64,000 bases of DNA from Heptranchias perlo (Eukaryota). Within the stretch, counting starts at the first letter, position 1, and the number at the start of each line of letters is the position of its first letter. The notes below the pieces were generated by a model that had not been told where the DNA came from, searched no databases, and was given only the letters and a program-made list of their open reading frames with translations. Both the position numbers and the translations under genes were made by a program. The DNA is taken from assembly GCF_035084215.1 (NCBI RefSeq), contig NC_090340.1:36952001-37016000 (forward strand), written 5' to 3'. This document shows positions 7,028 through 50,200 of the stretch, in pieces.

Positions 7028-7357
7028 CACCTCCTACAGTTTCAGTAAATACTCCAAATATTATCATTGAACCTGGGGAAGACAAAACAATAATTTGTGA
7101 GATGAAAAACTTTTATCCAGAAAACCATTCTGTCTCTTGGTTAAAAAGTGACTCAAAAGACAGTGGAAACCAAGTCGCTATCACATCAAGAGCGGTTACA
7201 GGATTACCTCAACAAAATCAAGATGGGACATTTAATCTGCTTTCATTCCTAATTATCAACGGCAACCAAACAGATGATGGAGCTTCTTACATCTGTGAAG
7301 TTAATCATGAAGCTTTAAAGACACCTCTACAAAAAGCTGTTAGTTTGACCATCAAGG
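7028..7357 (+). CDS. Exon: Ig C1-set domain (predicted extracellular; resembles B7-H6/tapasin/SIRP-type C1 domains)
   Basis: ttgtag|CA CCT..., AAG G|gtgagt. Translation PPTVSV...[19 protein letters not shown]...[12 protein letters not shown]...[16 protein letters not shown] has both Cys, FYP, the core Trp, DGTF and YxCxVxH. Sequons NHS and NQT. Confidence 0.93.
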
Positions 7358-10300
7358 GTGAGTAATAATAAAGGAGAATAGTACCTAGTAAATGACGAGC
7401 AACATTTCATTCTTCTGATTCTTCTGATTGAGCATGAATTCTGTTTTATTTTCACTTGGAGGAACTTGTTTTGAATTTGTGTAACTGAGCCACACTACAT
7501 GACGAGTTATTATAAGGAACAGACATTATCCAGTTCCTACACATGTAAACATCTGTTCCTTACAATGAGCCTCACCATATTTTAATTTTGGCCCAGTTTA
7601 TCTTCTTCATTCAGATTGTTCCTTGCTATCCTGCTCTTTGAAATGCAGACAATTGTTGAATGTTTTTCAGAAAATGTTCACAAAGGTATTACAATAGAAA
7701 TTCTGAAGAACTTTCATATGAATTTACTAGAAATGTACAAGACAACAAAGCAGTAGTATTGTCATCATACTCCATTCTAAATATTAATACTATATCTGAA
7801 TTATGTGGAATTCAGTTCATTCTGCTAACCCTTGGTCAAAATATGCAAAAACACAGTTATTTACTGTTGGGAACCAACAGTTTTCATAACTATTATTAGT
7901 AAAGATTCAACCAGTTTATTTTTTGATCAGTCAGCTATCCAACAGATACATAAATCCATCAGCATGTTTAAGAGTCTCTGAACCCCAAGCTACGTGTAAA
8001 ATTTTAATATGGAGTCCACACACTCTCCCTATTGGGACACAAACCCACTCTCTTAAGTCTAGTGAGCTTAGGTGTAGATTGGCAGAGCCAGGGCTTAGGT
8101 ACTCCCAAGTGTGCACAGGAATAGTGCTGCAGCTAAAACCCACTCATTGGTTTGCAGAGTTATCTGAAGCCAATGGAAAAATTCCCAGCCCCTAGTGACA
8201 AATCTACCCCATCCAAGTTCCATTAGTGAGCCAGATTGACAGGTCAGTCATCAACATTGCTCTGGAGCACTTGGGATCCGCTTGGCTCAGATATTGGATT
8301 ACGAGTCTGCCATGGAGAGTTAACTAAGTTCTGAATTTCTATAACCACTTGTATCATTTTGGAGCCATCTTGAACCCAAATAGATCCCAATTACCCCCTC
8401 CCCGCACCCCCCCAACCAAGAGGGTTGTAGCTGTTTTGTCAATAGACAATTGACAAATGCAGGTTTGAGTCCTTGCTAGTTGGCACTAAGAGCTCCTCAA
8501 AGTGGTGTAGTAAGCATCAGAACTGACCATGAAATGTGTGAGTGCATTGCCATTATCCTCCTGACCACAGCATGGACACACATCATACACCATACTAGTT
8601 GGAGATGTGCAGCTTGAGGACCACCTCTTTGCCTCTCTGCAAGCCAACCATGTTAGGTATTGGGCCCTGGAAATATGAGAACAGGGCTTCCAGTTATCCC
8701 CTTCCAGCACCAGTCATCCCAAGTCTCAGAGTTTCCTCATCAGCTATTAAACAGACATCTGCCTTCAACTTGGTGGAAGAATCTACTCAGGGCAGCTTGT
8801 GTCATGCGATACATCTTAGTGTTCTAAATGTCCCAAGTCCAAGCTGCTGAATTCAGGTCCTCATTGAGGGCATTATCAGAGGTATGTCCGCCATGGTATT
8901 CAGTGACAGATCAGTGTAGGCTGGAGCCATCCCTCTTTGCAGCCTCTTATCCTTTTGTGCCACTGTTTGATCCTGGATCTTGCACATAGGCCAGAAGAAG
9001 CTTTTCCATTGCATGCGTGGGAGTATAAGTATAAATGTATGTTTAATAAATGTCCTCCAACCCTGTTCTTTTATATTACATTATCATGTTGTCGTGCTAC
9101 TTGTCAACACATGGCTTTTTTCTTAATCACCATATCCCACTTCATGTTTTATCACCAGCAAAAGAAAGGCCTTGATGCAAGCCAGCTCTTGATCTTTAGA
9201 GTGGAAAAGAAAATGCTTTATTTTCTAAATTAGGGCCTGGAGCATGAGTTGCCAGCACATCTGGGTTGCAGAGTGAGGCTGGGTGGAATATTGGAACAAT
9301 AAGTAACTATTTTTGTGTTGACCTCACAATATAAATGGCAATGCAGACACTGAACTGTCACAAGTTTTAAATTTATTTCTTGTTGAAAGAATTCCATTTG
9401 CGAAGGAATTGGAGCCCTCTGAGATATAGATATATTTAAAAATGTCAAGAATTACAATAGGGGATGGAGTATTGTATGATTTCTTTATTTACAGCAGGGG
9501 TCTTGTCCATTTCACCAGACATTGTAAATGAAATAGCAGATTCTGCATCATTTATCAATCAAGATGCTGCTTTATGCTGCACTGCAACAAAATTTAAAAT
9601 TCTATTTTCTGCCACAAGCTCAGTCTTGCTATAACCAGCACAGAGAAACAGCAACAAATAAAGATAAATAATCAATAACACATCTTTGGTCTTGCGTTTT
9701 TTTTAGGTTCCAACCCAAGAGTCCGATCAGGGGCAATTCTCACAACTACTGTTCTAACTTTTGTGATCACGGCAGCTATTTGCTTTGGAACATTTATTTT
9801 CTACAGCAATAAAAGAGCAGGTAAATAACCAATCTTTTTAAAATTTGTTTTCGGGATCAGGTGACTTTGGCAAGGCTGCATTTATTGCCCTGAGAAGGTG
9901 GCGGTGGGCCTTTTTGAACCACAGCAGTCCTTGTGGTGATGATGCTCCCTCAGTGGTGTTAGGTAGAAAATTTCAGGATATTGACCCAGTGACAATGAAT
10001 CAATTTTAAAGATAACACTATTTCCTTCTGTCTCTGGTACCATACATTGTAATTGTTCTTTTCAGCCACAACATTTAAATGTGCATCGCATTCTAACCAG
10101 ATTTGTATACCTGCCGACCACTAGCTTTATAAGCTGACATTTAGTGCTTCAGCCCATGTGTCAGCTTGTCAGCATTTCAGAAGAGAGATCGACTTTTGTT
10201 CACTGGGATTGAAGGTTGTCAATCAATCAGATCAGTTGAAAGGTATCACCGAGCTTCTATCCGAGAAACGTAAAGAGAATGGAACACTAAAATAAATTTA

Positions 10301-13300
10301 AAATAGTGGGGAAAATGATCAATGCAGCACAGTACTAGAATTACAGTTTAATTTTTTCTGGAAAAGAACAATGGGGTGATTCTGTTCCTTTGTTTTTCAG
10401 TTGCTCCCAAAGTGACAGATATTATAAAACCAAACCATTTCCATGTGGATGATCCACTCTCTCTGGCTTGTGCAGTTCTCTGGTTCAAACCGAAAGCAAT
10501 TGGTGTCTCTTGGTACAGAGAGGAAGAGGGTAAATTCCAGAGGGTTCTCATCAGTAAATGGAACAGCACCTCATCTTCTATAAAACAACGTGAATACAGG
10601 AGCAATGAAGATTATTTTCAGAGTGAAAAGGAACAAGATGAAACAATGTCCTTCACAAAAGGAGAATATGACACTACCTTTACTTTGAAACAACACAAAG
10701 GAAGTGGAACGTATAGTTTAATATCTCAGCTAACCTTCAAACATGCATCAACTGCAAGAGTAAAACTGATGTATTCCTTTGAAGTCCAGCATGATTCTCT
10801 AAAGCAAACTATTTCAAAAGTACTTGTTTTAGAAATCCAAGGTGAGTTGCTGTGTTCTACTGCATAAGAAATCTAAAGAATGTTGGAATTGTTTTAATCT
10901 GTGCCAAAATGCGCATGATTAAATAACAAAATAGAAATCCTTTGCCAGTACATAGTTGTGTATAATATTATAGCCTACAAATTATTGTGTGCAATATTAG
11001 CATACAAGCACTTAACACATTCAGTTGAATTCCTCTGTCTATTATTTTAATGGACACACTAACCCATTTGAAATACTTGGATTAATGCCTTTGTTAAAAT
11101 AGTGGGCAGTGGAATGGTTAAGTATTCATATGTTAATTTTGCACAGTAATTTCTGGGATATCTCTGAATGCTTTGACTGTTCTTAACATGCCCCCAGTCA
11201 AATGAGCAGGATGTACTGCCAGGATACCAAAATATTAACCAGATTGCTGAGATTGAAATGTTGGTAGCCCATCTGCTGCTCCTTTTACCCAAGTGATGAA
11301 ATGTGTACACTTAGAAGTTTAGTTGTAGAAAAGAGGATTGAAAGGCCAGAAACCCACCAAAAATGTAGTACATACGTTGTGAAGGGAGGTGGCTGTGGTA
11401 CTGCCATCTCCTTGAACACCAGGACTACTTTGCAGTGCAGAAGGAAGTTTAATGACCTCAGCGAAGCAGCCCAGGTAAGCCAACTGTTCTCCCTTACCTT
11501 TCCTTGCAGTGTCTTTGTATGTCTAGCACTCCTTCATTCATTACCTTCACAGTCCCAGAGGAGTCAGGGGTGAAAGTGAGATCTTATAATGGGGAGCAAA
11601 GGCTTTGCAGAAGTAACCTTACTGGCTCCCAAGCCTGTGGCCTCAGAACTCTGAGGTTCTGCTCTAAAAAGAAAGTCACTGGATGAACATCAATCTCATA
11701 TTGAGCCAATGAGGGCCATCTCAGATGACCTGAGACAGATGGCAGGGGTCATGGCAAAGCTCAATGTCATTCTTAGTGCCAACATCCAAAAAAAATTTGA
11801 CAGAATGCAGCACTACCTGGAGTGAAGTGGTTTGTAGGTGCTGGTGGAAGGATACCTCCTAGTTGGTCTTCTCCTCCTTTGGTGTAGCCTTATCTTTTAA
11901 TACTCTGTCATTTCCTCTTCCTCGAGCTCCTGTTCCGCCTCCATTATAAGGATATATATGGGAATGGCCGTAGTGAACCCCATGGTAAGGGTTCCATGAC
12001 AGAAGGGTGGGAAGAAAAAGATTTCCTGCCTGAAACTGCTGAAAGACAGTTTGCAGAATCCTTTTTAAGTTGTGCAGCTGAGAATACATTGTTGTAATTA
12101 CTTCAGTCAAAGTTGATGTTTCAGATAAAGATTTTCATACAAGTAACTCAATCCTTTTTTCTACAGATTTAAGTTAAGTCAAGTGCAATTCTGGTGTAAA
12201 TGTTGGAATTTCCAGGACAGCAGCTTTTGCCCTCATTACCCTGTCATTTGCAAACATGCAGCAATTTGGGGAAGGGAACATCTTCTGCCCACAGCCAATT
12301 CTACTGGAATTTTGCATGTATTTTAGAATGGGTGTAACTCTGGCGTACACCCCAAATTTTGGTCCTCTGCACCAGAACTACACCATTTTTGCCCCAAATA
12401 TTCTTGGTACTTTGGGAACTTTTTCTTTAAATTAAACAAACAAGAAAATATACCCTTTAAATGTTTACTTCATGACCAAGAGGTTTGAGACCTGCTCTGT
12501 GCGGAGTTGGCTCATCTATGGTGGAGTGGTGAGAGGGGTACCAAAATTGACCTCAGCACCAGTGGGTTAGGAAGAAGGAGAAAAAAAAATCAGCCAGGGG
12601 CTTGCTCCTGAGTGTTATGCAGCAACTCTTGCTGAAAGTGTGCATATATGAATGTCAGGTAAGGACAGGATCAGTCTCAACTATGACGCTGTCTATGCTC
12701 ACACCTGGAGAATAGATCAGGTATCAGAGATCAATAGATGCCCATAGAACCATACTTGAGCAAGGAGTCAATGCCTTATGAACATAAGAACATAAGAAAT
12801 AGGAGCAGGCGTAGGCTTTAAGGCCCCTCGAGCCTGCTGCACATTCAATCAGATCATGACTGATCTTCGACCTCAACTCCACTTTCCTGCCCGATCCGTG
12901 TACCACTTGATTCCCCTAGAGTCTAAAAATCTATCTATCTCAGCCTTGAATATACTCAACGACTCAGCATCCACGGCCCTCTGGGGTAGAGAATTCCGAA
13001 GATTCACAACCCTCTGAGTGAAGAAATTCCTCCTCATCTCAGTCAAATGGCCGACCCCTTATCATGAGACTATGCCCCCTAGTTCTAAACTCTCCAGCCA
13101 GGAGAAACAGCCTCTCAGTATCTACCCTGTCAAGCCCCCTCAGAATCTTATATGTTTCAATGAGATCATCTCTCATTCTTCTAACTCCAGAGAGTATAGG
13201 CCCATTCTACTTAATCTCTCCTCATAGGACAACCCTCTCATCCCAGGAATTAATCTAGTGAACCTTTGTTGCACTGCCTCTAAGGAAGGTATATCCTTCC

Positions 13301-16300
13301 TTAGATAAGGAGACCAAAACCGTACGCAGTACTCCAGGTGAGGTCTCACCAAAGCCCTGTACAATTGCAGTAAAACTTCCTTACTCTTGTACTCCAACCC
13401 ATTTGCAATGAAGGTCAACATGTCATTTGCTTTCCTAATTGCCTGCTGTACCTGCATGCTATCCTTTTGTATTTCTTGTACAAGGACACCCAAGTCTCTC
13501 TGAACACCAACATTTACTAGTTTCTCACCATTTAAAAAATATTCTGTTTTTCTATTCTTCCTACTAAAGTGAATCACCTCACATCCCCACATTATGCTCC
13601 ATCTGCCACCTTCTTGCCCACTCATTTAACCTGTCTGTATCCCTTTCAGACTCTTTGTGACCTCCTCACAGCTTACCTTCCCACCTAGCTTTGTATAGTC
13701 AGCAAACTCGGTCCCTTCATATAAGTCATTAATATAGATTATAAATGGTTAATGGTTGGAAAGACGATCTGGAATGCACTGCTCGAGGGAGTAGTGGAGG
13801 CAGATTCAATCATGGCCTTCAAAAGGGAACTGGATAAGTACTTGAAACGAAAAAATGTGCTGGGCTACGGGGATAGGGCGGGGCAGTGGGACTAGCTGGA
13901 TTGCTCATGCATAGAGCCGGCGCGGACTCGATGGGCTGAATAGCCTCCTTCCGTGCTGTAACCTTCTATGATTCTATGATTCTAAAAAGCTGAGGCCCAA
14001 GAACCAATCCTTGCGGCACTCTACTAGTTACAGCCTGCCAACCTGAAAATGACCCGTTTATCCCTACTCTCTGTTTTCTGTCCATTAACCAATCCTCTAT
14101 CCATGCTAATATGTTACCCCCAACCCCATGAGCCATTATAAGAGGAAAAGAGGAGAGAAATTTGGTGGAAAAAAGAGAAAAGTGAAAGATGCTTACTTCT
14201 CACACTAGTAGTTATGGCCCTGAAACTCCGTGGGGTTCTCCTGATTTTCCTGTTGTAACTTTGGCGGGAGATTGGTGGAACCCTCGGAGAAATGGCATAA
14301 ATGGCCATTTTTAGTCATTTACACATTTTTCCAGGGGTTCCACCAACTTCCTGCTAGAGAACCCTGCAGAAATTCCAGGCTTGTGTTTTTAAACCCCTAA
14401 GGCAGCTGATGTGGTTAATGACCAACATTCAGCACACTCCTTACATTACTCAGCAGTGGAGCCACCAAAGGACTTCACTCAAAAAGAACAGACATTCCTA
14501 CTTCATCCACTTAGATAGCGCCTTTTAGCAGCATTAGCTTCGGATAACAAAGACAATTCCATTGCCCATTCACTATAACAAATGGGTAAAATAAACAGTA
14601 ACTTTCAATATCGTTGTCCTAGTAGCTGCTCTGCTAAGTGCATAATTTAACCTACTAAACAGAGAAAACAATTAGCAAATTAGTACTTCAAACCATGATA
14701 TAAAGTCTCCAGGCTAAAATAATATGGCAGGTTGTAAAATTATGCGACAGTTGAGAAAACTACAAGCCACAGTTATTTTCGCTGTAATCACCATCTTAGT
14801 AGCTACAAAATCAGACATCTTTAAACAGCTTCATTGGATGATTGGTAATGTTTGATTTTAAATGTTTTCATACCATTCTTATCAGGTGCTTGTGACAATA
14901 CTGCATATTTTCCACCACAAGTGAAACGCAAAGACTGGGCAATATATGCTATTGAAGACGGTCGTCGTACTGTGGCTAATTACATCAGTCCAAATATACT
15001 GCCGCTCTTAAACCTTTTATTGGAGAAGAAAATAATCTCTGAAGATGACCACAATATAGTAAAAGATAAACCAGACGTTGATAAAGGGCGAACTCTTCTC
15101 GATATGCTGAGTTACAGAGGTCAGCAGGCATGTGCTCATTTTTTCAATGTGCTGCAAGATACAGAAGACCTTTATCCTGGTATAAAGGAGTATGTAAAAT
15201 CACTGCTGGAATCCTACACTGACAAAGGTGACAGGCCAATTATTGATCTTCTCCATGAAGACCTGCCAACTGTTTCATTTGAGGTCAACAATGAAAAAAT
15301 CAAAATAACTAATTTCCCTGAAGGTAAGCATGATTTGTCAAAGGTAATGTCTTACATGCTAATAATGAATAGGCATCTCCATGTTTAAGCTTCCAATATC
15401 ATCAATAGTTTGGACCTATTTGTTTGGAAGTTGCTTAATACCGATGGATGGAAACACAATTTAAACCTTATTACAGATAAAGTATCAAAGAACTCTATAA
15501 TGATGTAGACATGGTTTATCCTAATGTTTCAGTTTCCTTATTTGACCGAGGGGAGTACACGTTGTTGGGTCTGCATTGATCATGCTTGGTTTGAAACCTT
15601 CACATAAACGGGACAATTTTCATCCCCATTTTCAGACAGGGCAGCTGCAGCAGGAGGCCTCCGACATCAGTCTGCAGCCACAACTGTTCACATGCAACTC
15701 ATTGAACATCGCTTCTCCTAAACTACTCCCTTCCCTATACCCCCCACCACTCCCTCCACTTCCTGTCCAGATCACCATCTGAACCAGGTCATCCACTTGC
15801 CAATAAAGAACTTCCACCCCACTGATCATCATTGACATATATGCCACCTAATTTTGCCGAATCCACGGCTATAACTGAAACACTCTGCAGACACCATTGG
15901 TTTAGCTTCTTAGGAAGTTTTAGCTGGTTTAAGTAGCCTTCCTCAGGAATTTCTGGATTGGGTTAGATGGAAGCCATGACAGTATAGTTGTGCATTGTAC
16001 ATCGGAAGGAATAAGCTCATTGGGCAAAGGGCCTTTCCTCATTCCATGGTTTCTTATGTTTTCTACTCAATGCAACAACCCACTTTCTGTGTTGCGGAGG
16101 AGTTACATCAGTGTATATGTCCCATGGTGTTCAATTCACATTGCATTGGCATTGGCACTGGCACATGGCATTGTTATTTCATTTTTATTGATTAAAAAGC
16201 TATTTTAAAGAACAATTTATACATCAGATTTTGCAGAAAGTATATTAAAAATATTGCATCCAAAATGATATCCAAGAGATTAGGAAGAGATTAGATTTTA

Positions 16301-19300
16301 ATTTGGGAACCTTGCCTGCACCACGACTCCTTCCTCAGAGTGTTCCTAGGAATTTGGATGAAGTGGGAATTTTCATTTTCTTGAAATCAAAGCAATGAGA
16401 CCGAGGAGAGCAGATTTATGATGAATGATATGTGAACTATGATGCAAGGTGAAAGTAATCACATTGTTTTATGTATAATTTTTTTTACCCATCCATAACA
16501 ATTCATATTTGCTACATTCAGGACATGTCTAGAGTTGGGGAATTTTTGTGTCACTGTACCGATGATCACACAAATACAGGTTGTATATTGAAGATAATTT
16601 GTGACAGTCAAGTATCCAAACACTCCTGCTAACTGATTTTAATAATAGACTCTATCTACTATGTAAGTGGAATGGAGTAGATTATAGTTTGAACTGGCTT
16701 ACTGGGTAACTTTATATCTTTCTACAAGAAATATTTCAGTTCTTAAAATGAATTACATTTATCATCCAATTTATCAAATGTCTTGCATTCCTTTATATAG
16801 AATGAAACCTCCATTACCTAGGTTCCAATTATTTGCTTTTCATATTAGCCTTAATTCTTGTAGGACAAAGCCTTGTAGCAGGCGTCGTCCTATTGCACTG
16901 GCCACTAACACCAATCTCCTTGGTTCAACATAAATCAACCTCATAAACCAAAAAAAGATTAAATTCATTTTCTGTGATTTATATTGTACTTGTCTTCATT
17001 CTGTGTCCTTTGTATTACTGTACCATATGTGCAACGACCAAAATTTGGAGAAACATGGGTATGTGCCAACTTCTATTATTCACTGAAAAGGCCCCATTCA
17101 TTATGGTGGATAATGGAGGCTCCACAGGAGGTCATTATTTTTCTCTTGTAATTACAGAAATCTCTGAAGCAGTGACTACACATAAGCACACATTAAAGGC
17201 ACAGATGGAGAGAATAAAACCATACTTTGCATTTGATAACTCCAGACCATTGCTGCAGGAACATTTTACCAGCCTGGTCATTCTCAATGTTCGAGAAAGG
17301 AACAAAACAGAACATGAACTCCTGCAACACAGAGATTATACAGCATGTGAGCGTATAGATTTGAAGCAGCTTCTTTCACCATCTGCACCTGGGGAAAAGC
17401 CACCACGAGTCACTCTAGTGCAAGGAGTGGCAGGTATAGGCAAAAGTGTTATGATGCAGAAGCTCGCTCATAGTTGGACCTGTGGAACAAGTTATGCTGG
17501 TTTTTATATGCTGCTGTATTTCAGTTTTCGGGAGTTAAACACACTTAACGGAAAAATCAGTCTGACTGAGCTCATCATACGTAGTTACCCTCATCTGAGA
17601 GCATCATGCAATAAGATGCTGGAATTTCCGAGTGGGATCCTGTTCTTATTTGATGGATTAGATGAATTCAGACTGCCTCTTGAATTTGATGTTCATTCAA
17701 TTGTTGGCCCGTCCACTGCTCAGCACATTAACCATTTGATTGTAAGTATCATAAAGGGAGATCTTGTTCGTGAGGCATCTGTTCTTATCACATCCCGCCC
17801 AACCACAATTGATTTAGAGCACAAAACATATTTTCATCGATGTGCTGAAATCTTAGGATTTTCCAAAAAAGAAATTGCTGCATACTTTCTGAAGTGCCTC
17901 AAGGACAAAAAAGTTGCTGATCATGTCTTTCGAACCGTGAAGAGTATTGATTCCTTGTATGGACTTTGCTATGTTCCTGCATTTTGTGACATCCTGTGCT
18001 TCTACCTCCATAAATCCTTTCACTCTAAAGGCAAGTGGTCTCAGCTGTCTTCCTTTCCCAGGACAATCACAGATTTGTTCCTCAGATTCACCAAGTGTTT
18101 ACTGGTCTGTAACAATGATGAGGAAGAAGACCCTGAGTCCTTCTGTATAGGAGATGATGAAGACAAAAATGAAATAATTACATTGGCACAACTTGCATGG
18201 CATGGGGTCATCAATAAAACAATAATATTTTCAGCAAATGACATTGAAAGCAACGTCTCCAAGGATACAAAATCCTTCTGGAAGAAGATTCTCACCAAAG
18301 AGAGCCTGAAAATGATGCAATCTCACATATGGCAGTTTTTTCATCTGACTCACCAGGAATTTTTTGCAGCACTCTATTGCATTTCTGCAAATGAGCCTGG
18401 TGTGGATTATGTGCACAAAGCCTTCAGTTCAAAGAGCAGTGCATTTGAGATTGTACTGAGGTTCACTGCTGGCCTAGTCTCTCAGAGCAACAGAAAACTT
18501 GTGCAGCAGTTGGTGCCTGAACATCATCAAGTTAAAGAAAAGGAAGTCTTTGCTTCCATCGAAAATGTTGCTGCTGTTGAAGTTCCAAAAGAAGACACGT
18601 TAACTCCAGAAAATATTACAAAATATACAGCACACAAAAGACAAAAACTAACAGCCTTTCATTGTCTATATGAAGCGTCAAATGAAAAATTAACACAACT
18701 AGTTGCCTCCCAAATCAGTGACGTTGTAAACTTTTCTTACATCTCTTTGAATGTGACTGACTGCACTGCAGTTGCAAACCTTCTTTCTTACCATACAGCT
18801 ATTGAAACGTTGGAATTAGATGGGTGCAAAGCTGGAGCATCTGGTTTCCAAAGATTGGAGTCTGTTCTCTCAAGAGTCAAAACATTGAGGTATTAAAATG
18901 TGGTTTCTGTTACATGAACTAGAAGTACTAGAAATGTGCTGGAATTCCGGTGATTCAGCCATTGTGGGGGGAGAAAATTGGATAGGGGCCGTTTTTGGGC
19001 GTAGATAGTGTGATGTGCTATCACCCCGCGCCCAATGACCCCAGCGCAGGCAGGACCCAAGTTTCGGCCCACACAAGGACTTACCTGCAATCAGTGTTCC
19101 ATTCCAGGCCTTGCGCGTGGAATCAATGCAATTTGCACTTTCCACCACTAGGGGGAGCGCAATCTCTTAAAGGGAGGATGTTTCTTAGAAATCTCTTAAA
19201 GGTAGCTGGTACCTGTTATTTGCTGAAAATAACAGTCTACTGTCTGCACGGAGTCTGAACGGAGATCAGACATCGCACACGTAAAATACAGATGCAGGTC

Positions 19301-22300: not shown

Positions 22301-25300
22301 TGTTAAATGTGAATAAGAGACAGGAAGAAAGTAATTACACTGTTTAGTATGTGGGAAAATGCTAGCAGAGCTTAAATAGAATAATTATAGTTCAGTGAAT
22401 TAATACTTCATTGGTTCAAAAATACATTCTGCATTCACAGAGTCAGAGCTAAAGAAAAGATAATTATTGTTTTATTTTTATTCAACAGTTTGGAGGGAAA
22501 CATGCTGGAGGACGAAGGAGCAGAGTCCATTGCCAATGCACTCAAAAGTAAAATGTGTAGAATAGAAATCTTAAGGTAAAATTTCCACTTTTATGCACCA
22601 AATTGAAAAAGATTGTTTTTATTTTAATTAAAAGGGCATAATAGTAAAATTAAAGGTAAAGCTTTGGTTCAATTAAAAAATGTAGAGAAAAAATGAAGGC
22701 TAATTTAAAAAATACATTTGTTAGGATTTAAAATCTCAGCATAAGAGTGACAGTCATTAGTGCATTATGAGATCCTTCCCACAACTGTTACCTCATAACA
22801 GTGTGTGATTTTAGATTCATAACTTTTGTTCTCATTATAAACTTGGCTATTATATCCTTCAGAGTCCCTTTTAAAGATCAAACTGTTAAAAAAATTATGA
22901 TTTAATATCAATTTTCTGTCTATTAGTAATTTTTTGGACTATTTGATTTAAATACTGAATGCTGATGACATCATGCAAATTGGAAGGACTCATTAAAGTT
23001 AATGATGCAACAGATGTGAATTTTCAGAAATATGGTATTCATATATATAACAAATATAGCAAAAATATGTTTGTGATTGTAATATCATTTTAATTGTGTG
23101 TATATTATTTATGCTCCCACACATAGTATGACAATAGTAACTTTTCCAAGCCAGTTTCCTGACAGTATCATCAGCATTCACTGTTTAAAGAAGATAGTTT
23201 AAAAATCTATGAATATGCAAGAACAGGTTAATGAATTCCACAGGATGGCAAAGTCAATCAGGATTCTATGTAACTGATTTTGATGATAGTGGTGCAGGGT
23301 TATGTGAATTGTACAGTTGATTTTTGACATATTACATCATTTTATTTTTAGTTGGTTAAAATAGCAATCTTACTTATCAACATTAAAAAATTATTTGAAA
23401 TGTTATTTGAGCCATTGTACACCTGGTTCTACTGACAGGCAGAGTAATATACAAATTCTACAATAACGTACTGTGTGATAAACTCTGTTCATAGCACATG
23501 AAAATAACTTCCTGCTATTCAGTCTATGTTTTAAGAAACTGCATTTTAACATTTTTAATGCAGGAAAGATTTCCCTTCATGCTGATAACGAGGCTAATCA
23601 GGAATATTTCCAACTGAATTATCATTAAATTATATTCTACAATTGAGATGATGGACTATTGTGTTTGTATATAATATTTGGATATCACTAATTTGAACTC
23701 CAGACACAAGGTACAAATAATACAGTAACTGAATGCCTTCCGATCTTCACAGGTTGAAGCAAAACTCCATAGGGGAGAAAGGAGCAGCACAAATAGCTGA
23801 AGCTTTGAAAACAAACAGCAGTCTGAAAACATTGGGGTTTGTATTAAACCTGGTGAATTAGAACACTTGTCAAACTTTCAGGAGAATTTATGAATAAAAT
23901 GATTTAACTTCACTGCCGTTATGATGGCTGGGATGCTGTTAAGTTCTCTTGTTTTTAGCTAAATCACTTTGTCCTCATTAGATTAAGAGCAAATACCGTC
24001 CGAGCCAAAGGTGCCCGATCGATGGCTGAAGCTCTGGAGATCAACACAACATTGAGAGTTCTCGGGTATGTTTTTTTTTCTTTTTTGTGTAATACTTTGC
24101 CATATTACAGAATTTCAGGCCAGTGCTGTTTGTGGCTTGCTTTGAAAACTCCATAGTAGCTCCTCATGTTGACAAACAGAGGAACTCTCATTGCAACCAG
24201 TGTGTAATCTATGCTGCATTGTTAAAATTTTAACTTGTGTATTTTATTATTTGTGTTTTTAGTAAAAGTAAGATTTAAAAAAATTAGTATCACCCACATA
24301 TAATTAGAGACACAATTACATCATCAAATGACCAATGATAACATTGTGCCTTAGACCTATTTATAAGTATGGCCCAAAACTCCTTGGGAGATGTGCTGGG
24401 TCTCTGTCATTTCCTCAATACCTTGTTAGGGACAGAACTTCTGACAAAGCAAATGACAACCAAGGATGGTACCATTGATAGGCTTTCGCTAAGCTAGAAT
24501 TTTGGGGCCATGAAGCTTTACTGTGCCGACCATGCCTATTTAATACTCATAAGGACCCACTGGAAGCTCAACATATGGGCTATGTAAGAATATAAGAACA
24601 TACAAGAGCATGGAACAAGAAAAGCTGTTTGGGTCATCAAACCCATTCCTTCCACAGACCATGTACAGTTTTCTCTATCAAGGCCTCTACCTAATTCTAC
24701 TCAATTGAATTAATCTCTGAGGGAAGTTCCTATAAAGTTTCTGTGTCCCCACCCACAAAGGTAGTCAGGCGAAATCCAACCTTACAGCCTGCATTATTGG
24801 TTGGTTTGCAGGCCATGACAGTTTCATGGGCCCAATGGCACAGCAGGTGTCACTGGATCGAAATCTACAGAGAAAGCCTGGCTGATTTTCTTTTCCCCTC
24901 TTTCACCCATGGGCACTGAGGCCAACTGTAACACCTCTTCCACCACCTAAAGTCAAATCAGCTAACTTAGCACAGATTGAAGATTGAACCTGGGAACTTG
25001 CTGGTCTGTATGACTGAGCTCCACACTGCTCAATGTATTAATCAACTAAGTCATTTTGGAGCTAAAAGTACAGCTTTCATTATAGAAGAGTATTAACATA
25101 AGTGTCTTTGTCCTAATCCAGCTTACAATTTAACAAAATCAAGGATGAAGGGGCAATGTATATGGCACAAGCAGTAAAAAGAAATCGCAGCTTGGTTGAA
25201 TTAAGGTAAGGGTTTAAATCGAAACTCGCATATTAAAACTTTCTCTACTCCCACCTCCTCCCTTGCACACTTACTTCCATAAGAACTTTTGAGTTAAATT

Positions 25301-28300
25301 TTATAAACAGGTGTTAGTTGGATGGTACATTAGCACTTGCCTGACTGTGCCTGGCTGATTTTTTTTGAAGTGAGCTTCATTTACATAGTGTGAATACTCA
25401 ACCTGGCATTGGGAGCTATCCAGAGAGGAGCAGGAAATTGCATGTAAGCAGCCCTTCAGGGAAGCTTATAAGCTGTGATGGGTAAATTTAAAAGGATGCA
25501 GGCAATTGAAGTTAAGTGGCTGCACATGGAAGAAAAAAGTTCTAAGTAGGGATTAAATTATTTGCCAGGGTTGTGACTTCTATAGGTTCTCTTTTGCACC
25601 TCTCTTCTGCCCCCATGATACTATTGCTAGCTCTCCTTAAAAAAAAATAACCTTTTTGATTCACTTTTGTCCTCCATCTCTACTCTTGATGATCCTGGTA
25701 TAGAACCTCCCTCCATTGCTCCATTCTATTATCCCTGCCTGGTCTGTTGGATCTTCCACTCTCTGGACTCCTATATGACTTGTGATCCTGATGATATCTC
25801 TCCTATCTCCCTCAAGACATGTGCCTCTGAACTCACCCTTGTTCTTTGACATCTCCTCAATTTCTCTTACTCCCAGTTCACTTTTTCTTCTTGGAAATTT
25901 GCGTGTTCATCCTATTCCTCAAATAAACAATCACTTATCTTTTCAAGTACTATCCTCTTGCCCATACCTCTACTTTCTAAAGTTGTGTAAGCTGTTGTTC
26001 AATCGCAAATTATCCATCACCAGGCTAATCTTTGACATTATGGTTTTCAACATGACTTTGGACATCTCCAAAACATTAGACCAGGTGCACATCTAACTTA
26101 CCATCATATGACTTCTCACCAAAGCTAATTTTTGACTAGGTAGTTTCCTTTCAAATCATTCTATTTGCAAAAGTTGGTGGCTTATTGCCTGACTCTTTTT
26201 TCCCATTAACTCAGGGGTTCTCCGGAGCTCTATCCTCACTGATACTCAATTCCTTCTTCATGATCCTTACAATCATTATCCAACCATATCCACTCTTCAG
26301 CTGATGATTCCACTCTGTCATTCATCAACTTCCTTCAGGTTGCATGTCCTCAGTAATAAGAGCCCTCTTTTATCAACATTGTTAGTCTTACTATCTCCTC
26401 TGACCTCAAATGGAACACATCTTATCCATTGCTAAAGATGCCTCCATGAAGTTTGGTTTCCACTTTCACGCTAAACACTTGTTTTCCCCTCACAAATCCT
26501 AAACTCTCTTTAAAACCCAAGTCCACTTGAATACTATTCACATACCTGGGGAGGCTCTTCTCATTCCTTATCATCTGATAGGTGATCTATTACTCATCTC
26601 AAGCCTTTATCCTCTCTCTTTCTGTTGTGAATTTTTCTCTCTCTCTGTTTTATCAATACTATTCTGGTCAGTGCTTCTCTGAACTTTCTTTTCTTGTTCC
26701 TCCTAACCTCCAGATATGCTGTTCTTCATACTCTCCCCCTATTTACAACCTCATGGTGTTAAAATCAAGGCCCACTACATTCTCCTAATCTAACTCATTC
26801 TTTCACAGGACCATAGGGCTGTGGAGCTCCTTGCCTCCCTCTTTCTTTCCTTTTACTTACCATCTTCAGGCTTTTAAAATTCAAGTTTGGCATCGTCTAA
26901 TCATTACTTCCTGATTTACCTCAACACCCTTTTACTCTTCTCAACTTGGAAGTGTCCTACACTATGGACTTAGCCTTTCAAATTGGTTTCTCAATTTTTT
27001 TTAAATTTAATTTGTAAAGCAGATTTTAATGGCAGACAGCTCTTGCACTCAATCCCACAACTATCTTGGTTGGGAAATCACTGCTTTTATTGACAGCCTG
27101 TTGAATTACTAATGCAGCCATATGTGCATTGATTCCTATGTTTATAATCAAACTTAAATATCTCTTTCCAACATGTTTTAACATTGTTTACCTTGTGGAG
27201 TATCCTTAGTGAAGAAGTTTAATTAAGAGAGTTAATTACCAAATTATGAATAAGTTCTATGTTTCAAGCTTGATGCTTTAATCTTGGCCAAGACTATTAA
27301 AACTTCCATTTTCACTTTTATATAATTTTCAGTTAAACAATGGAAGTAATTGTTCATTATATGTTATGAAAATTGCTCCTTTAAAACAAAAGTGTTACAT
27401 TGTTTTGTGTGCAATATATATTCTGCGATTTGGATCCTTCATTTTTAAAGGATTTCATTTTGCACATTATCTGTGTGAACCTTGTTGGTAGCTGTGTAAT
27501 AAAATGGACAATGCTTGTTTACAGACTCGGAGACAATGATATCACTGAAAAGGGGAGTGATTTCTTCAGAAGTGCTTTAGAAGTGAATGGCACACTTGAA
27601 GAGTTGTGGTAAAAATGTTGCTTTAATTGTACCTGAGTTTGAAAAGTTGCTTATTAAGCCTCTTAGATAAGCCTACAGTTTCCCTCTGTGTCTCTCTTGG
27701 CATCCTCCGAAGGGCCCATCGAGGCACTCGTCGCTGTCTCCTTACGAGCAGCAACCCCAACTGCTCGATCCTACTCTTTCACCGACTTTCCCGCCCAGCG
27801 CATCCGCTGGGGGCTAACCTTGCCAATCCCCTTCCTGTCCCACTCACCCCTCCCAGCACTGACCCTGTGGACTCTGCAGCAGATCAGCTATCACCGCCCC
27901 TCTCCGCATCTCTCTCAGAATGTCCGTTCACTTTTGAATAAGGTCCTTGCCATCCATGAGCTTATTGTGGATGATCGCATTGACATCATGGCCTTGGCGC
28001 AAACCAGGCTGACAGGTGATAACACCTTCCGCCTTAATGAAGCCCTCTCGCCTGGCTGTACCTTCCACCACTTGCCCCGCACAGACCACCGCGGTGGTGG
28101 TGTGACCCTTATCACCAAATCACACTTTGGCCTGTCCCCCTACTCCTCTGGCACCTTTTCTTCCTTTGAGTATCTCACCTTGTTTTACCCCTCTCACCTC
28201 GCCTTTAAAATCCTCATTCTCTACCACCCACCCAATTACCACACCAAGTTTCTCACCAAGATATCTTCACTGCTTTCCTCCCTCAGCCTCTGCACCAAGT

Positions 28301-30846
28301 GACTTCTCATCCTCGATGATTTCAACCTTCATCTCAACTCATCATGCTCTCTCTCCTCTGAGTTCACTGCCCTTCTATCCTCCCTTAATCTTTCCCTCCA
28401 TATAAACTCCCCTACCTATATTCACGGCCACCCCCTCGACCTTGCCATCTCATGTGACCTCTCTACTGCCATCATGTCAATCACGGATACGGCCATCTGT
28501 GATCACTTCCTTGTATTCCTCTCCACCCACACCCCCCTTCCCCCCCCCAACCCCACTTCCTTCTGTGTCTGCCCCTGGAAAAACTCTCTCCCAAGTCACT
28601 TACAACCGCATCTTCAAATTCCCAACTGTCTAGCCTTTGGCCCTCCATTCATCACAACATTTCTGCAGCTACCGATCTGCTCAATCACACCCTCACCTCC
28701 ATCTTTCATGCCCTTGTCCCCATTAAAAACAATTACTCTCTCTCGCCTGGTCGTGCCCCCGGTATGGCCCTCATCTCTGCTCCCTTAAGTCCAAGGGACG
28801 CAAAGTGTGAATGTTTAGCCATTCATCGCCAGATCTGGTTTGATCACATAAAGCACTATCAGGTCCTGCTATCCTCTGCCAAAACTGCTCACTACTCCAG
28901 GATCATCCAGGAATGCAAAGATAACCCCTGGCTTCTCTTCTCCACTACAAACCGTCTTCTTAAACCCCTCTCCCCTGCCCCCTCCGCCCTCACCTCCAAC
29001 GAAAAGTGCGATGAGCTCATGGACTTCTTTGTTACTAAGATTGAGACCATCCGTTCAGCTGCCTCTGCTGCTTCACTCCCTTCCCCTAGTACACCAAGCC
29101 AAACTTCTCTTAAGGCTCCCCCCTGCCCATGTTGTTGTTTAGAATTTCTTGGTACATTAGGATCATATACACAAGGCTGTCTTTTTATTGGAAAGGTGCA
29201 ATTTTTTTAAATCAGTAGATTCCAACTCTAAGATGTCAGTCTCATGTGTGTCTATGATCACAGATTCTGTGAACCCATCTCTAAAGGAAGTAAAAATAAC
29301 ACATGTCCATGTCGTACCAATTTGACTTTTGTATTATTAACAATGAAATTCTACACATTGTGAGACGGAATTAAAGTTCCTTGTGTAAAATACTATTGAA
29401 TTAAAATGGAAAATGGAAAAAATGAGTAAGTATGCTGTTTATCTCACTTATCAGTGCAAGTAATCTTAAAGTATTTCCAATCAGTGCTATTTGAAAATAA
29501 AGACTGGTAAATTTCAGCCATCAGTGTGTCAAAATATCACAGTGTAATAACCCTACCTGTATTGAAAATATCTGTTAATATCAGGTATTAACCAATAAGA
29601 TGCATTTATTCTGTGAAATAGTTAATTTCAGAATCATCTCAAATATCTAGCATAATAATTAAACTAATATGATATTTTATAAAACTCCTCACTCTCTCGT
29701 GACTTTGCTCGCAGAGAGTCAGAGGAAGTGGTATGGCTTTTAGCTGTTTGTTGTAACAGGCAGAAAAATGTTACAGTACCCACTTCTAAAGGAAGTAGGA
29801 ACACGTGTTCTTGTCATATTAGGGCAGATTTTTCTTTTACTGCACTTTAGTTGGATGGAAAATTGAATGTGCTCCATTATGTATGTGAGATCTCCTCCCT
29901 GATTTTCCTTTATGCATTGCACCCAAACATCCTTTATACCCAAGTGCAACAAGAGCAAAATTGCCCCTTTTGCTTTTGTAGAAGAGGTTACAGAACCTCC
30001 TCCCAATTTCTGGGGCTTGACAGTTTTACCAACTCAAAGATTTTAATATATTGGGCCAGAATTTGCTGTGAACGGCGAACGAACAGCGCCCGCCCTCTAC
30101 AGGACATCTGTGTGTACAGGAAAAGCAGCTGTGTATCTCCTTAACCAATCAGATCGAAGCATCGTTAATAACAGCGCAGAGTCTGAACCAGGAAGTGTAA
30201 GTTAGAATAGTGAATTCAATGTCAAATCAGGTACGGAAAGCGAAATAAAGAGGGAAAGAAAGGTTGGATTAAGGGACAGAGATAAAAGAGACAGAAAGAA
30301 AGAGTAAAATAATTTTTTTTTTAAATGTCCAACAACAATTAAAATCTGAAGGAATGAGACTCCATACTTGTAAAAGTCTTTTTTTAGTGCCAGCGATGTT
30401 GTTTGGCAGTAATTAAGACTTACCACGCCATTAAAAGGGTACTTAGATTTGAAATGACTTAACTTTTTTTTTGGCGAGATTAGTTCATATCTATCAGGTT
30501 AAGTATAGGAACTTCACACTGTTCAATACATTTGAACAGGGAGCAAGCCGGCGAGATGCCGTATTCGCGCTGCTTTTGGAGGACCATCGCATCTCATACA
30601 GCAACTTCTGGATTTCCGCGTTTAACTGCGCACATGCGGTCGCCGGAAGTTGCTATCTAATTTGCACATGAATAACGGTGAGTGCTGTTAGCCTCACCTG
30701 ATTTTTACAGCAAAGTTTTTGTGTTTTAAATTCTGAAATTCTTTAACTTTTTTCCTTTTAGGATTCTGGTGAATAACATATCAAATGATGGAAAGGAAAG
30801 ATTGAAAAATGCCAGTCATAAAAACCCAAATCTTCGATTGAATTAA
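7028..30846 (+). CDS. Multi-exon gene, copy 1 (5'-partial): Ig C1 - TM - Ig-like - CARD - NACHT - LRR; putative membrane-anchored NOD-like receptor. Exons 7028-7357, 9707-9820, 10401-10841, 14886-15323, 17158-18889, 22489-22575, 23753-23836, 23982-24065, 25122-25205, 27525-27608, 30762-30846
   Basis: All 11 exons have canonical AG acceptors and (except the last) GT donors. Phases are compatible (1-1,1-1,1-1,1-1,1-2,2-2 x5,2-stop). The spliced product is 3563 nt with no internal stop. Domain motifs recognised by eye. Confidence 0.8.
9707..9820 (+). CDS. Exon: transmembrane helix (absent from the ORF track)
   Basis: Polypyrimidine tract ttttttttag|GT, donor GCAG|gtaaat, 114 bp, phase 1-1. Translation [38 protein letters not shown] is a roughly 24-aa hydrophobic run followed by KR. 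Confidence 0.88.
10401..10841 (+). CDS. Exon: divergent Ig C1-like domain C-terminal to the TM (predicted cytoplasmic), second Cys replaced by Phe
   Basis: tttttcag|TT GCT..., CAA G|gtgagt. Translation PKVTDI...[20 protein letters not shown]...[11 protein letters not shown]...[16 protein letters not shown]. Confidence 0.87.
11290..11480 (+). mobile_element. Remnant of a Myb/SANT-like ORF, probably from a Harbinger transposon (duplicated at about 48150-48345)
   Basis: [13 protein letters not shown] motif followed by cag|gtaagc. Confidence 0.5.
12780..14135 (-). mobile_element. CR1 LINE 3' part, interrupted by an opposite-strand CR1 3' end at about 13745-13984 (duplicated at 49643-50998)
   Basis: RDLGVLV...[25 protein letters not shown]; tail (aacataag)n at 12780; inserted piece ends in (ttctatga)n. 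Confidence 0.9.
14216..14381. mobile_element. Short MITE-like element
   Basis: Imperfect inverted ends ggccctgaaactccgtggggttctc / gagaaccctgcagaaattccaggc. Confidence 0.5.
14886..15323 (+). CDS. Exon: CARD (death-fold) domain
   Basis: atcag|GT GCT..., GAA G|gtaagc. [22 protein letters not shown]...[25 protein letters not shown] matches the CARD pattern (LL..Ll...vls.edy..i...aR.LLD.l..kG..ac..F...L). Confidence 0.88.
17158..18889 (+). CDS. Exon: NACHT NTPase with helical/winged-helix domains and first LRRs (NLRC3/NOD-like)
   Basis: attacag|AA ATC..., TTG AG|gtatta. Walker [16 protein letters not shown], Walker [11 protein letters not shown], sensor-1 [23 protein letters not shown] motif [20 protein letters not shown]. 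Confidence 0.96.
18965..19610. mobile_element. GC-rich MITE/Harbinger-like element just after the NACHT exon
   Basis: Ends gggggagaaaattgg / ccaatttagtgcccat; CpG-rich interior. Confidence 0.55.
20540..22010 (-). mobile_element. L2-clade LINE 3' part inserted into an older + strand L2 fragment (about 20270-20539 and 22011-22303); duplicated at about 57374-58850
   Basis: [18 protein letters not shown]...YVDDTQLY...QLNIGKTE and LADLHWLPV; (aac)n tail at 20540. Confidence 0.9.
22489..22575 (+). CDS. LRR exon 1 (87 bp)
   Basis: ag|T TTG...TTA AG|gt; [31 protein letters not shown]-type LRR, phase 2-2. Confidence 0.9.
23753..23836 (+). CDS. LRR exon 2 (84 bp)
   Basis: [28 protein letters not shown]; AG/GT, phase 2-2. 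Confidence 0.9.
23982..24065 (+). CDS. LRR exon 3 (84 bp)
   Basis: [28 protein letters not shown]; AG/GT, phase 2-2. Confidence 0.9.
24860..25060 (-). mobile_element. Old SINE-like repeat (related copies near 12470-12700, 34620-34800, 35760-35990)
   Basis: Shared core atcagctaacttagcaca...gaacctggga in several dispersed copies. Confidence 0.45.
25122..25205 (+). CDS. LRR exon 4 (84 bp)
   Basis: [28 protein letters not shown]; AG/GT, phase 2-2. Confidence 0.9.
25640..26915 (+). mobile_element. Degraded non-LTR retrotransposon distinct from the local CR1/L2 families (duplicated at about 62485-63760)
   Basis: [76 protein letters not shown]. Confidence 0.75.
27525..27608 (+). CDS. LRR exon 5 (84 bp)
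   Basis: [28 protein letters not shown]; AG/GT, phase 2-2. Confidence 0.9.
27665..29138 (+). mobile_element. L2-clade LINE endonuclease-region fragment
   Basis: QNVRSLLNK...IDIMALAQT...RGGGV...LYHPP; DFNLH; DHFLV; ends in gttgttgtt. Confidence 0.85.
30052..30718. mobile_element. MITE-like element immediately upstream of the terminal exon
   Basis: Inverted ends gaatttgctgtgaa / tttttacagcaaagtt; CpG-rich. Confidence 0.55.
30762..30846 (+). CDS. Terminal coding exon (last LRR and cap, stop TAA)
   Basis: ttttttccttttag|G ATT...; [28 protein letters not shown], a typical NOD/NLRC3-type C-terminus. Confidence 0.85.
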
Positions 30847-47200: not shown

Positions 47201-50200
47201 GAATTACAGTTTAATTTTTTCTGGAAAAGAACAATGGGGTGATTCTGTTCCTTTGTTTTTCAGTTGCTCCCAAAGTGACAGATATTATAAAACCAAACCA
47301 TTTCCATGTGGATGATCCACTCTCTCTGGCTTGTGCAGTTCTCTGGTTCAAACCGAAAGCAATTGGTGTCTCTTGGTACAGAGAGGAAGAGGGTAAATTC
47401 CAGAGGGTTCTCATCAGTAAATGGAACAGCACCTCATCTTCTATAAAACAACGTGAATACAGGAGCAATGAAGATTATTTTCAGAGTGAAAAGGAACAAG
47501 ATGAAACAATGTCCTTCACAAAAGGAGAATATGACACTACCTTTACTTTGAAACAACACAAAGGAAGTGGAACGTATAGTTTAATATCTCAGCTAACCTT
47601 CAAACATGCATCAACTGCAAGAGTAAAACTGATGTATTCCTTTGAAGTCCAGCATGATTCTCTAAAGCAAACTATTTCAAAAGTACTTGTTTTAGAAATC
47701 CAAGGTGAGTTGCTGTGTTCTACTGCATAAGAAATCTAAAGAATGTTGGAATTGTTTTAATCTGTGCCAAAATGCGCATGATTAAATAACAAAATAGAAA
47801 TCCTTTGCCAGTACATAGTTGTGTATAATATTATAGCCTACAAATTATTGTGTGCAATATTAGCATACAAGCACTTAACACATTCAGTTGAATTCCTCTG
47901 TCTATTATTTTAATGGACACACTAACCCATTTGAAATACTTGGATTAATGCCTTTGTTAAAATAGTGGGCAGTGGAATGGTTAAGTATTCATATGTTAAT
48001 TTTGCACAGTAATTTCTGGGATATCTCTGAATGCTTTGACTGTTCTTAACATGCCCCCAGTCAAATGAGCAGGATGTACTGCCAGGATACCAAAATATTA
48101 ACCAGATTGCTGAGATTGAAATGTTGGTAGCCCATCTGCTGCTCCTTTTACCCAAGTGATGAAATGTGTACACTTAGAAGTTTAGTTGTAGAAAAGAGGA
48201 TTGAAAGGCCAGAAACCCACCAAAAATGTAGCACATACGTTGTGAAGGGAGGTGGCTGTGGTACTGCCATCTCCTTGAACACCAGGACTACTTTGCAGTG
48301 CAGAAGGAAGTTTAATGACCTCAGCGAAGCAGCCCAGGTAAGCCAACTGTTCTCCCTTACCTTTCCTTGCAGTGTCTTTGTATGTCTAGCACTCCTTCAT
48401 TCATTACCTTCACAGTCCCAGAGGAGTCAGGGGTGAAAGTGAGATCTTATAATGGGGAGCAAAGGCTTTGCAGAAGTAACCTTACTGGCTCCCAAGCCTG
48501 TGGCCTCAGAACTCTGAGGTTCTGCTCTAAAAAGAAAGTCACTGGATGAACATCAATCTCATATTGAGCCAATGAGGGCCATCTCAGATGACCTGAGACA
48601 GATGGCAGGGGTCATGGCAAAGCTCAATGTCATTCTTAGTGCCAACATCCAAAAAAAATTTGACAGAATGCAGCACTACCTGGAGTGAAGTGGTTTGTAG
48701 GTGCTGGTGGAAGGATACCTCCTAGTTGGTCTTCTCCTCCTTTGGTGTAGCCTTATCTTTTAATACTCTGTCATTTCCTCTTCCTCGAGCTCCTGTTCCG
48801 CCTCCATTATAAGGATATATATGGGAATGGCCGTAGTGAACCCCATGGTAAGGGTTCCATGACAGAAGGGTGGGAAGAAAAAGATTTCCTGCCTGAAACT
48901 GCTGAAAGACAGTTTGCAGAATCCTTTTTAAGTTGTGCAGCTGAGAATACATTGTTGTAATTACTTCAGTCAAAGTTGATGTTTCAGATAAAGATTTTCA
49001 TACAAGTAACTCAATCCTTTTTTCTACAGATTTAAGTTAAGTCAAGTGCAATTCTGGTGTAAATGTTGGAATTTCCAGGACAGCAGCTTTTGCCCTCATT
49101 ACCCTGTCATTTGCAAACATGCAGCAATTTGGGGAAGGGAACATCTTCTGCCCACAGCCAATTCTACTGGAATTTTGCATGTATTTTAGAATGGGTGTAA
49201 CTCTGGCGTACACCCCAAATTTTGGTCCTCTGCACCAGAACTACACCATTTTTGCCCCAAATATTCTTGGTACTTTGTGAACTTTTTCTTTAAATTAAAC
49301 AAACAAGAAAATATACCCTTTAAATGTTTACTTCATGACCAAGAGGTTTGAGACCTGCTCTGTGCGGAGTTGGCTCATCTATGGTGGAGTGGTGAGAGGG
49401 GTACCAAAATTGACCTCAGCACCAGTGGGTTAGGAAGAAGGAGAAAAAAAAATCAGCCAGGGGCTTGCTCCTGAGTGTTATGCAGCAACTCTTGCTGAAA
49501 GTGTGCATATATGAATGTCAGGTAAGGACAGGATCAGTCTCAACTATGACGCTGTCTATGCTCACACCTGGAGAATAGATCAGGTATCAGAGATCAATAG
49601 ATGCCCATAGAACCATACTTGAGCAAGGAGTCAATGCCTTATGAACATAAGAACATAAGAAATAGGAGCAGGCGTAGGCTTTAAGGCCCCTCGAGCCTGC
49701 TGCACATTCAATCAGATCATGACTGATCTTCGACCTCAACTCCACTTTCCTGCCCGATCCGTGTACCACTTGATTCCCCTAGAGTCTAAAAATCTATCTA
49801 TCTCAGCCTTGAATATACTCAACGACTCAGCATCCACGGCCCTCTGGGGTAGAGAATTCCGAAGATTCACAACCCTCTGAGTGAAGAAATTCCTCCTCAT
49901 CTCAGTCAAATGGCCGACCCCTTATCATGAGACTATGCCCCCTAGTTCTAAACTCTCCAGCCAGGAGAAACAGCCTCTCAGTATCTACCCTGTCAAGCCC
50001 CCTCAGAATCTTATATGTTTCAATGAGATCATCTCTCATTCTTCTAACTCCAGAGAGTATAGGCCCATTCTACTTAATCTCTCCTCATAGGACAACCCTC
50101 TCATCCCAGGAATTAATCTAGTGAACCTTTGTTGCACTGCCTCTAAGGAAGGTATATCCTTCCTTAGATAAGGAGACCAAAACCGTACGCAGTACTCCAG

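Follow-up and report, generated by a model that had tools for sequence, protein, structure and literature searches.

The window (the whole 64,000-nt stretch of Heptranchias perlo DNA that was analysed) contains most of a gene whose product, judged by its predicted topology, should be a type I membrane protein that joins a B7-H6-like surface protein to an NLR and that is shared by 13 shark and ray species. Between its transmembrane (TM) segment and its NLR part lies one further immunoglobulin exon, which encodes a C1-derived, disulfide-free domain that we call C1*. C1* is not an invention of the NLR fusion; it is probably a variant of the C1 domains that follow the TM in B7-H6-like proteins. 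The fusion is more surprising than the loss of the Cys, which is common in that family. C1-set domains are extracellular, disulfide-bonded modules of jawed-vertebrate immunity, while vertebrate NLRs are soluble sensors. The fusion gene breaks both textbook rules, has been retained in sharks and rays alike, its NACHT motifs intact, and would link a B7-family signal at the cell surface straight to NLR/CARD signalling. The coordinates of the features are collected in Table 1.

Table 1. Features of the fusion gene in window coordinates; negative positions lie upstream of the window.
Feature	Position	Strand	Remarks
Signal-peptide exon	from -6066	+	upstream of window
V exon	about -940 to -602	+	upstream of window
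Extracellular C1 exon	7028..7357	+	both Cys present
Transmembrane exon	9707..9820	+	114 nt, phase 1/1
Post-TM C1-set exon (C1*)	10401..10841	+	441 nt, 146 whole codons, AG..GT, phase 1/1
B-strand Cys23 (TGT)	10469..10471	+	invariant; sole Cys of C1* in Heptranchias perlo
C-strand Trp37	10511..10513	+	invariant in aligned orthologues
Charged loop, residues 59-77	10577..10633	+	pLDDT <50, aromatic-Q-x-E motif
Phe126 (TTT), F-strand Cys position	10778..10780	+	Phe in 13/13 species
CARD exon	14886..15323	+	438 nt, phase 1/1
NACHT exon	17158..18887 (approximate ends)	+	Walker A GVAGIGKS; Walker [18 protein letters not shown]; [12 protein letters not shown]
LRR exons	22487..30843: 22487, 23751, 23983, 25126, 27508 (long isoform), 30757	+	approximate, tblastn
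Second C1* copy, identical	47264..47704	+	within 36.9-kb tandem duplication

The window's own protein is P0001, a Heptranchias perlo protein of 1289 aa annotated as NLRC3-like. It was compared with orthologues from ten further shark and ray species, to which a profile search added Narcine and a cluster look-up the nurse shark, and the layout signal peptide-V-C1-TM-C1*-CARD-NACHT-LRR was found in all of them. That the exons are joined is seen in assembled contigs of sequencing runs, which we took as RNA by guess and whose exon-only joins demonstrate splicing, not level or tissue. One 1746-nt contig of run X1 reads 50 nt, V, C1, a 114-nt insert, C1* and CARD, and one 3803-nt contig of run X5, from another organism and another study, reads V (3' part)-C1-114 nt-C1*-CARD-NACHT. 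The 114-nt insert, which has exactly the length of the TM exon, stands between the two C1 exons in contigs of X1, X2 and X5, and all contigs spanning the C1* site include C1*. CARD, NACHT with Walker A and B, HD2 and LRRs, the parts of an NLR, are present in one spliced protein. The NACHT domain matches NLRP3 best (E 6.5e-41), then NLRP1 and others; the CARD matches ICEBERG, cIAP1 and NOD1, weakly; and the best solved-structure match of the ectodomain is human B7-H6 (E 2e-29). NLRs of the NLRP3, NLRP1 and NOD1-2 type resemble the fusion in NACHT and CARD, but they are soluble proteins of the cytosol that lack a signal peptide, Ig domains and a TM. In Pristiophorus (P0005) and Narcine (P0013), annotated isoforms skip the CARD exon and retain C1*, and such skipping possibly gives a CARD-less form of the protein. 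The records P0001-P0014 all carry the precomputed family PF27087, which was absent from our own Pfam scans.

The C1* reading frame, 10403-10840, runs from APKVTDII to VLEIQ and contains LACAV (Cys23), F-K-P, VSWY (Trp37), GTYSLIS, YSF (Phe126) and VQH. All the motifs listed in a preliminary description of this DNA, made from the letters alone, were thus found at their positions (B-strand Cys, FxP, VSWY, GTYSLIS and VxH), and so was its main observation, the change of the F-strand YxC to YSF with a TTT codon one change away from TGT. In alignments Phe126 falls on the Cys of the YACEVTH motif of antibody constant domains. The Pfam C1-set model PF07654 scores the exon at 26.4 bits against a cut-off of 21, and the best ESM Atlas matches are C1-set throughout (0.92-0.94). 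With a Pfam score above the cut-off and an exon that is spliced in contigs of two studies, C1* is more than a chance open reading frame. The intrachain B-F disulfide that belongs to a C1-set domain is absent from C1* in the 13 species.

The upstream C1 exon measures 330 nt and that of C1* 441 nt, so that the 37 additional codons (111 nt) reported earlier are indeed there. Because the spacing from the Trp to GT[FY] is 65 residues in C1* and 29 in the upstream C1, 36 of the 37 extra residues must lie between strands C and E. The 19-residue piece that had been named as the whole insert covers only about half of it and coincides with the loop 59-77.

The aligned species (12/12) all have Y-x-F in the F strand, together with an invariant B-strand Cys and C-strand Trp, and the nurse shark orthologue has YSF likewise. 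The codon may be a single change from TGT, but with Phe in 13/13 shark and ray species the loss is conserved, as the proposed alignment of orthologues was to show, and is no recent slip. Six sharks, Heptranchias perlo included, have a single Cys within C1*, and an internal disulfide is therefore impossible there. Over the whole protein, mean pairwise identity is 66% for C1*, 77% for V, 77% for C1, 71% for CARD, 84% for NACHT and 87% for LRR. C1* is the least conserved domain, yet it is present in all 13 species. Within it, loop 55-78 is lowest (52% mean pairwise identity, with indels), while strands A-C and C' reach 72-77%. The low identity, the loop indels and the lost disulfide could mean that C1* is a degenerating remnant of the C1 array of its parent, kept only as an in-frame exon between TM and CARD. 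We regard this as very improbable: core motifs are intact, 41/147 columns are invariant (11 species), no species of the 13 has lost the domain, and its exon, being of phase 1/1, could drop out without a frame shift just as the CARD exon does, yet every covering contig contains it.

An AlphaFold model from the single sequence was poor (pLDDT 49) and was set aside. With 11 orthologue sequences, AF2 gave an eight-strand Ig sandwich at pLDDT 70.4, in which residues 59-77 stay below 50. The structure prediction and Foldseek search suggested in the preliminary description thus return an Ig fold: Foldseek matched the model to Ig domains only, and VIA gave Z 10-12 to Ig domains. The individual Z values are 11.8 for a TCR V domain, 10.5 for IgNAR C3 and 10.3 for the C1 of B7-H6 (rmsd 2.3, 97 aligned), and the leading rows are nearly tied between V and C1 domains because the insert of C1* adds strands. 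In the model the insert appears as extra strands plus one flexible charged loop, and Phe126 would fill the core where the disulfide would otherwise lie.

For the position of C1* relative to the membrane, hydropathy gives the same picture in 12/12 sequences, namely an N-terminal peak and a peak at about residue 250, near or above 2. Past the TM there is at most a weaker peak of 1.6-1.7, which lies inside NACHT. Together with the spliced contigs, this places C1* behind a single TM of the fused protein, as had been proposed. A signal peptide and a single TM predict type I topology and hence a cytosolic C1*. The positive-inside rule is uninformative here, because the TM is flanked by basic residues on both sides, and N-glycosylation sequons are equally uninformative, because NACHT and LRR carry as many. 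It is extremely unlikely that the 114-nt segment is no stop-transfer sequence, or that the topology is inverted, and that C1* is a disulfide-less extracellular Ig domain. One could point to a Thr-rich and only moderately hydrophobic TM (1.85-2.6), to the basic flanks and to an N-x-S/T sequon in C1* in 8/12 sequences. The sequons found in NACHT and LRR take the weight from the last point, however, and type I is favoured by a signal peptide, by V and C1 domains that carry disulfides and are homologous to the ectodomain of B7-H6, and by the single TM, with CARD and NACHT following without a further strong hydrophobic segment.

To see how C1* relates to other proteins, its profile was searched against 1.84 billion representatives. 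Of the 99 matches 98 were non-NLR proteins, mostly with V-C1-TM and then chains of C1 domains; 59/98 have one TM that is flanked by C1 domains. The 19 matches that were looked up, mostly named 'uncharacterized', come from chimaera, sharks, ray, bichirs, teleost, coelacanth, lungfish, amphibians, lizard and turtle. Counted over near-complete domains, both Cys are present in 57/58 last extracellular C1 domains, 17/56 first post-TM domains, 44/57 second and 86/171 later ones (second and later together 130/228), counts that are biased and whose rows are interdependent, since the relatives are mutually related and were collected with a Cys-less profile. We did not rely on Fisher tests of these counts for the same reason. 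Median domain lengths are 107 aa for the last extracellular, 139 for the first post-TM, 120 for the second and 103 for later domains. A less biased check is offered by a cluster on contig C12 of the Heptranchias perlo genome, which was found with the V exon. There, both Cys are present in 6/6 extracellular C1 exons and in 1/5 of the C1 exons that come next; TM exons were recognised in 3/5 genes, and the database model gives a fourth. The cluster (C12:29.01-29.41 Mb) holds at least six B7-H6-like genes, several of them with up to seven C1 exons past the TM exon, and most keep a TP-x-K FG loop.

Since the relatives and the C12 cluster show both, the long C-E insert and the tendency to lose the Cys are traits of the B7-H6-like family, and neither the domain nor its insert is special to the NLR fusion. 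The V-C1-TM-(C1)n proteins, whose hosts include chimaera, sharks, rays, bichir, coelacanth, lungfish, amphibians and reptiles, share with the fusion the post-TM C1, the long C-E insert and the frequent loss of the F-strand Cys. They differ in that a chain of further C1 domains follows and in that Val, Leu or Ile, rather than Phe, mostly takes the place of the Cys; a NACHT motif was looked for in these relatives and none was found. Phe occupies the F-strand Cys site in just 1/56 first post-TM domains of relatives. Because it is so rare there, the fusion lineage probably lost its Cys independently.

These counts also limit what the missing disulfide tells us about topology. The earlier claim that it independently supports the fused topology stands in part: the loss of a Cys is commoner in the post-TM C1 domains of the family and raises the odds that C1* is cytosolic. 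The support is only probabilistic, however, because both Cys remain in 17/56 first and 130/228 later post-TM domains, and because one ray orthologue has lost a Cys of its extracellular C1. The loss is neither required for nor unique to a cytosolic location; it fits this location and does not prove it. The ray in question is Narcine (P0014), in which the B-strand Cys of the extracellular C1 is replaced (IISVM), so that the disulfide is lost on the presumed outer side. As a natural disulfide-free C1 fold C1* is an object for study in its own right, and it offers a way into the cytoplasmic C1 arrays of ectotherm B7-H6-like proteins, which have been little described.

Where C1* came from was addressed with profiles and trees. 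C1* of the 12 orthologues scores 49-78 bits with the profile of first post-TM domains, 51-74 with that of second ones and 23-44 with the extracellular profile, while the orthologues' own extracellular C1 domains show the reverse preference. Two trees were built, a quick one of 72 domains (20/59 relatives, 6 orthologues) and a careful one of 36 (10 relatives, 3 orthologues), and both place C1* among post-TM domains, with modest support (89/77). In AU tests the grouping of C1* with first post-TM domains gave p 0.48, and that with all extracellular C1 domains is not rejected (p-AU 0.20). That C1* arose when the gene duplicated its own C1 exon was considered as well and is disfavoured, with hhalign E 3e-6 vs 8e-20 and a borderline p-AU of 0.044 for C1* with its own C1.

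The C1*, CARD and NACHT exons are all joined in phase 1. In the simplest history, which would predate the split of sharks and rays, a B7-H6-like gene would have acquired a phase-1 CARD-NACHT-LRR cassette by splicing behind one of its post-TM C1 exons, in place of the rest of the C1 array. We found no unfused sister NLR among 150 scored NACHTs elsewhere in the Heptranchias perlo genome, which are at most 43% identical, and a CARD-NACHT search at E 1e-60 returned 14 fused proteins only, its strict cut-off hiding distant NLRs. The protein and profile searches gave no fusion in chimaera or bony fish, which is weak evidence of absence. The same genome has a very large NLR expansion on contigs C1317, C1370, C1445, C1349, C1488 and others, where 150/150 scored NACHT matches have E <1e-15; these NACHTs are mostly 37-43% identical to the fusion gene.

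Among the functions that had been offered for C1*, that of a spacer fits best. C1* probably came from the B7-H6-like parent and probably serves as a folded spacer in the cytoplasm, keeping CARD-NACHT-LRR just under the membrane and relaying clustering of the ectodomain. An outside ligand would cluster the V-C1 ectodomain, the rigid C1* would pass the clustering on to the cytoplasmic side, and the locally concentrated NACHT domains could then oligomerise and present their CARDs to a caspase or adaptor. This reading is in part a default.

Phosphorylation and cleavage, which had been proposed alongside, found weak motif support. They belong to the idea that C1* serves as a tripwire or as an integrated decoy. 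An enzyme of the host or of a pathogen would cut or modify its exposed charged loop, or a pathogen protein would bind it, and the CARD-NLR would thereby be released or activated. Integrated decoys in plant NLRs and the protease activation of NLRP1 and CARD8 are the analogies. We consider this unlikely, although the loop is predicted to be disordered and is variable, its Tyr stands in an aromatic-Q-x-E motif in 11/12 species, x-E-Q-D is found in 9/12, C1* directly precedes the CARD, and the N-terminal half of the protein mimics the B7-H6-like family of the same genome. However, x-E-Q-D is absent from 3/4 rays, and the residue after it is Lys or Glu, which caspases disfavour at P1'. By eye, neither an ITAM nor an ITIM pattern is seen in the loop, the long insert is ancestral in non-NLR relatives, and a cut inside an Ig sandwich need not part the halves. 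In the decoy form of the idea, pathogen proteins aimed at B7-H6-like tails would bind C1*, and the B7-H6 look-alike of the transmembrane NLR of sharks and rays, C1* included, would as a whole be an integrated decoy for pathogen proteins or proteases that attack B7-H6-like NK ligands. This is doubtful as well; if it were true, an attack on C1* would fire CARD-NACHT-LRR, and a vertebrate would have a guard in the plant style.

C1-set domains usually pair through their ABED faces, and C1* could in the manner of CH3 or CL/CH1 pre-assemble receptor dimers, or it could bind adaptors or the cytoskeleton. The conservation of strands A-C and C' would suit such pairing, and an echinoderm membrane NLR is reported to bind fidgetin and actin through an intracellular Ig domain (PMC13133943). 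Set against this are the position of C1* as the least conserved part of the protein and the tandem C1 chains of the relatives, which suit beads on a string better than obligate pairs. We judge a pairing or partner-binding role to be quite unlikely and keep the spacer as the preferred reading.

The tail of human B7-H6 (NCR3LG1; PDB 3PV6, 4ZSO) is Gag-like and, different from that of the fusion, has neither C1 nor NLR. The ectodomains are alike, both being of the V-C1-TM type, and the shark fusion keeps Phe82, Gly83 and Lys130 of the NKp30 site. In place of Thr127-Pro128, however, the fusion has F-S, L-S or S-P. According to PMC3135353, Thr127-Pro128 makes 44% of the NKp30 contacts in the human B7-H6 complex. 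[TS]P is present in the FG loop of 1/12 fusion orthologues vs 36/43 of the non-NLR V domains scored. Given the importance of these contacts, the sequences suggest that the ligand of the fusion is probably not NKp30, at least not bound in the human manner.

Flajnik et al. 2012 reportedly noted extra Ig domains in the tails of ectotherm B7H6. Our literature search found no report of a B7-H6/NLR fusion or of cytoplasmic C1 domains of B7-H6; the fusion may already be in print, and if so, probably in Kinlein et al. 2021 or Flajnik et al. 2012. Its sequence is already in the hands of immunologists, since the full-length nurse-shark orthologue is deposited as GenBank QTT61908.1 under the name B7H6 (1318 aa, with YSF and the whole NLR part). 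The consulted portion of the whale-shark genome paper calls NLRs intracellular and leaves an Ig-TM form unmentioned (PMC8455134). The sea-cucumber proteins AjNLRC4 and AjNLR-new also combine Ig, a membrane segment and NACHT in one protein, as far as the excerpts of PMC8699970 and PMC13133943 describe them. By the same excerpts AjNLRC4 differs in having two TM segments and neither CARD nor LRR, and AjNLR-new in having its NACHT outside. The comparison with the shark fusion, whose ectodomain is of the jawed-vertebrate type, is one of layout.

The second C1* copy belongs to a tandem duplication of 36.9 kb and 99.5% identity (5548-42419 and 42413-79247, the latter reaching past the window end), which starts in the V-C1 intron. 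Copy 2 is without signal and V exons, and its annotated protein of 1134-1162 aa starts inside C1. Because 4/5 of the differences in its NACHT exon also occur as variants in the run contigs, copy 2 may be a second haplotype assembled in tandem. In the flanks, where 50/135 long open reading frames were scanned, only retroelements, a transposase-like piece, a zinc-finger exon and a PH-FYVE exon were found. The C2H2 zinc-finger exon (L009:8778-9938) and the PH-FYVE exon (L010:851-1705), which we take to be PLEKHF-like, lie about 30 kb past the window end.
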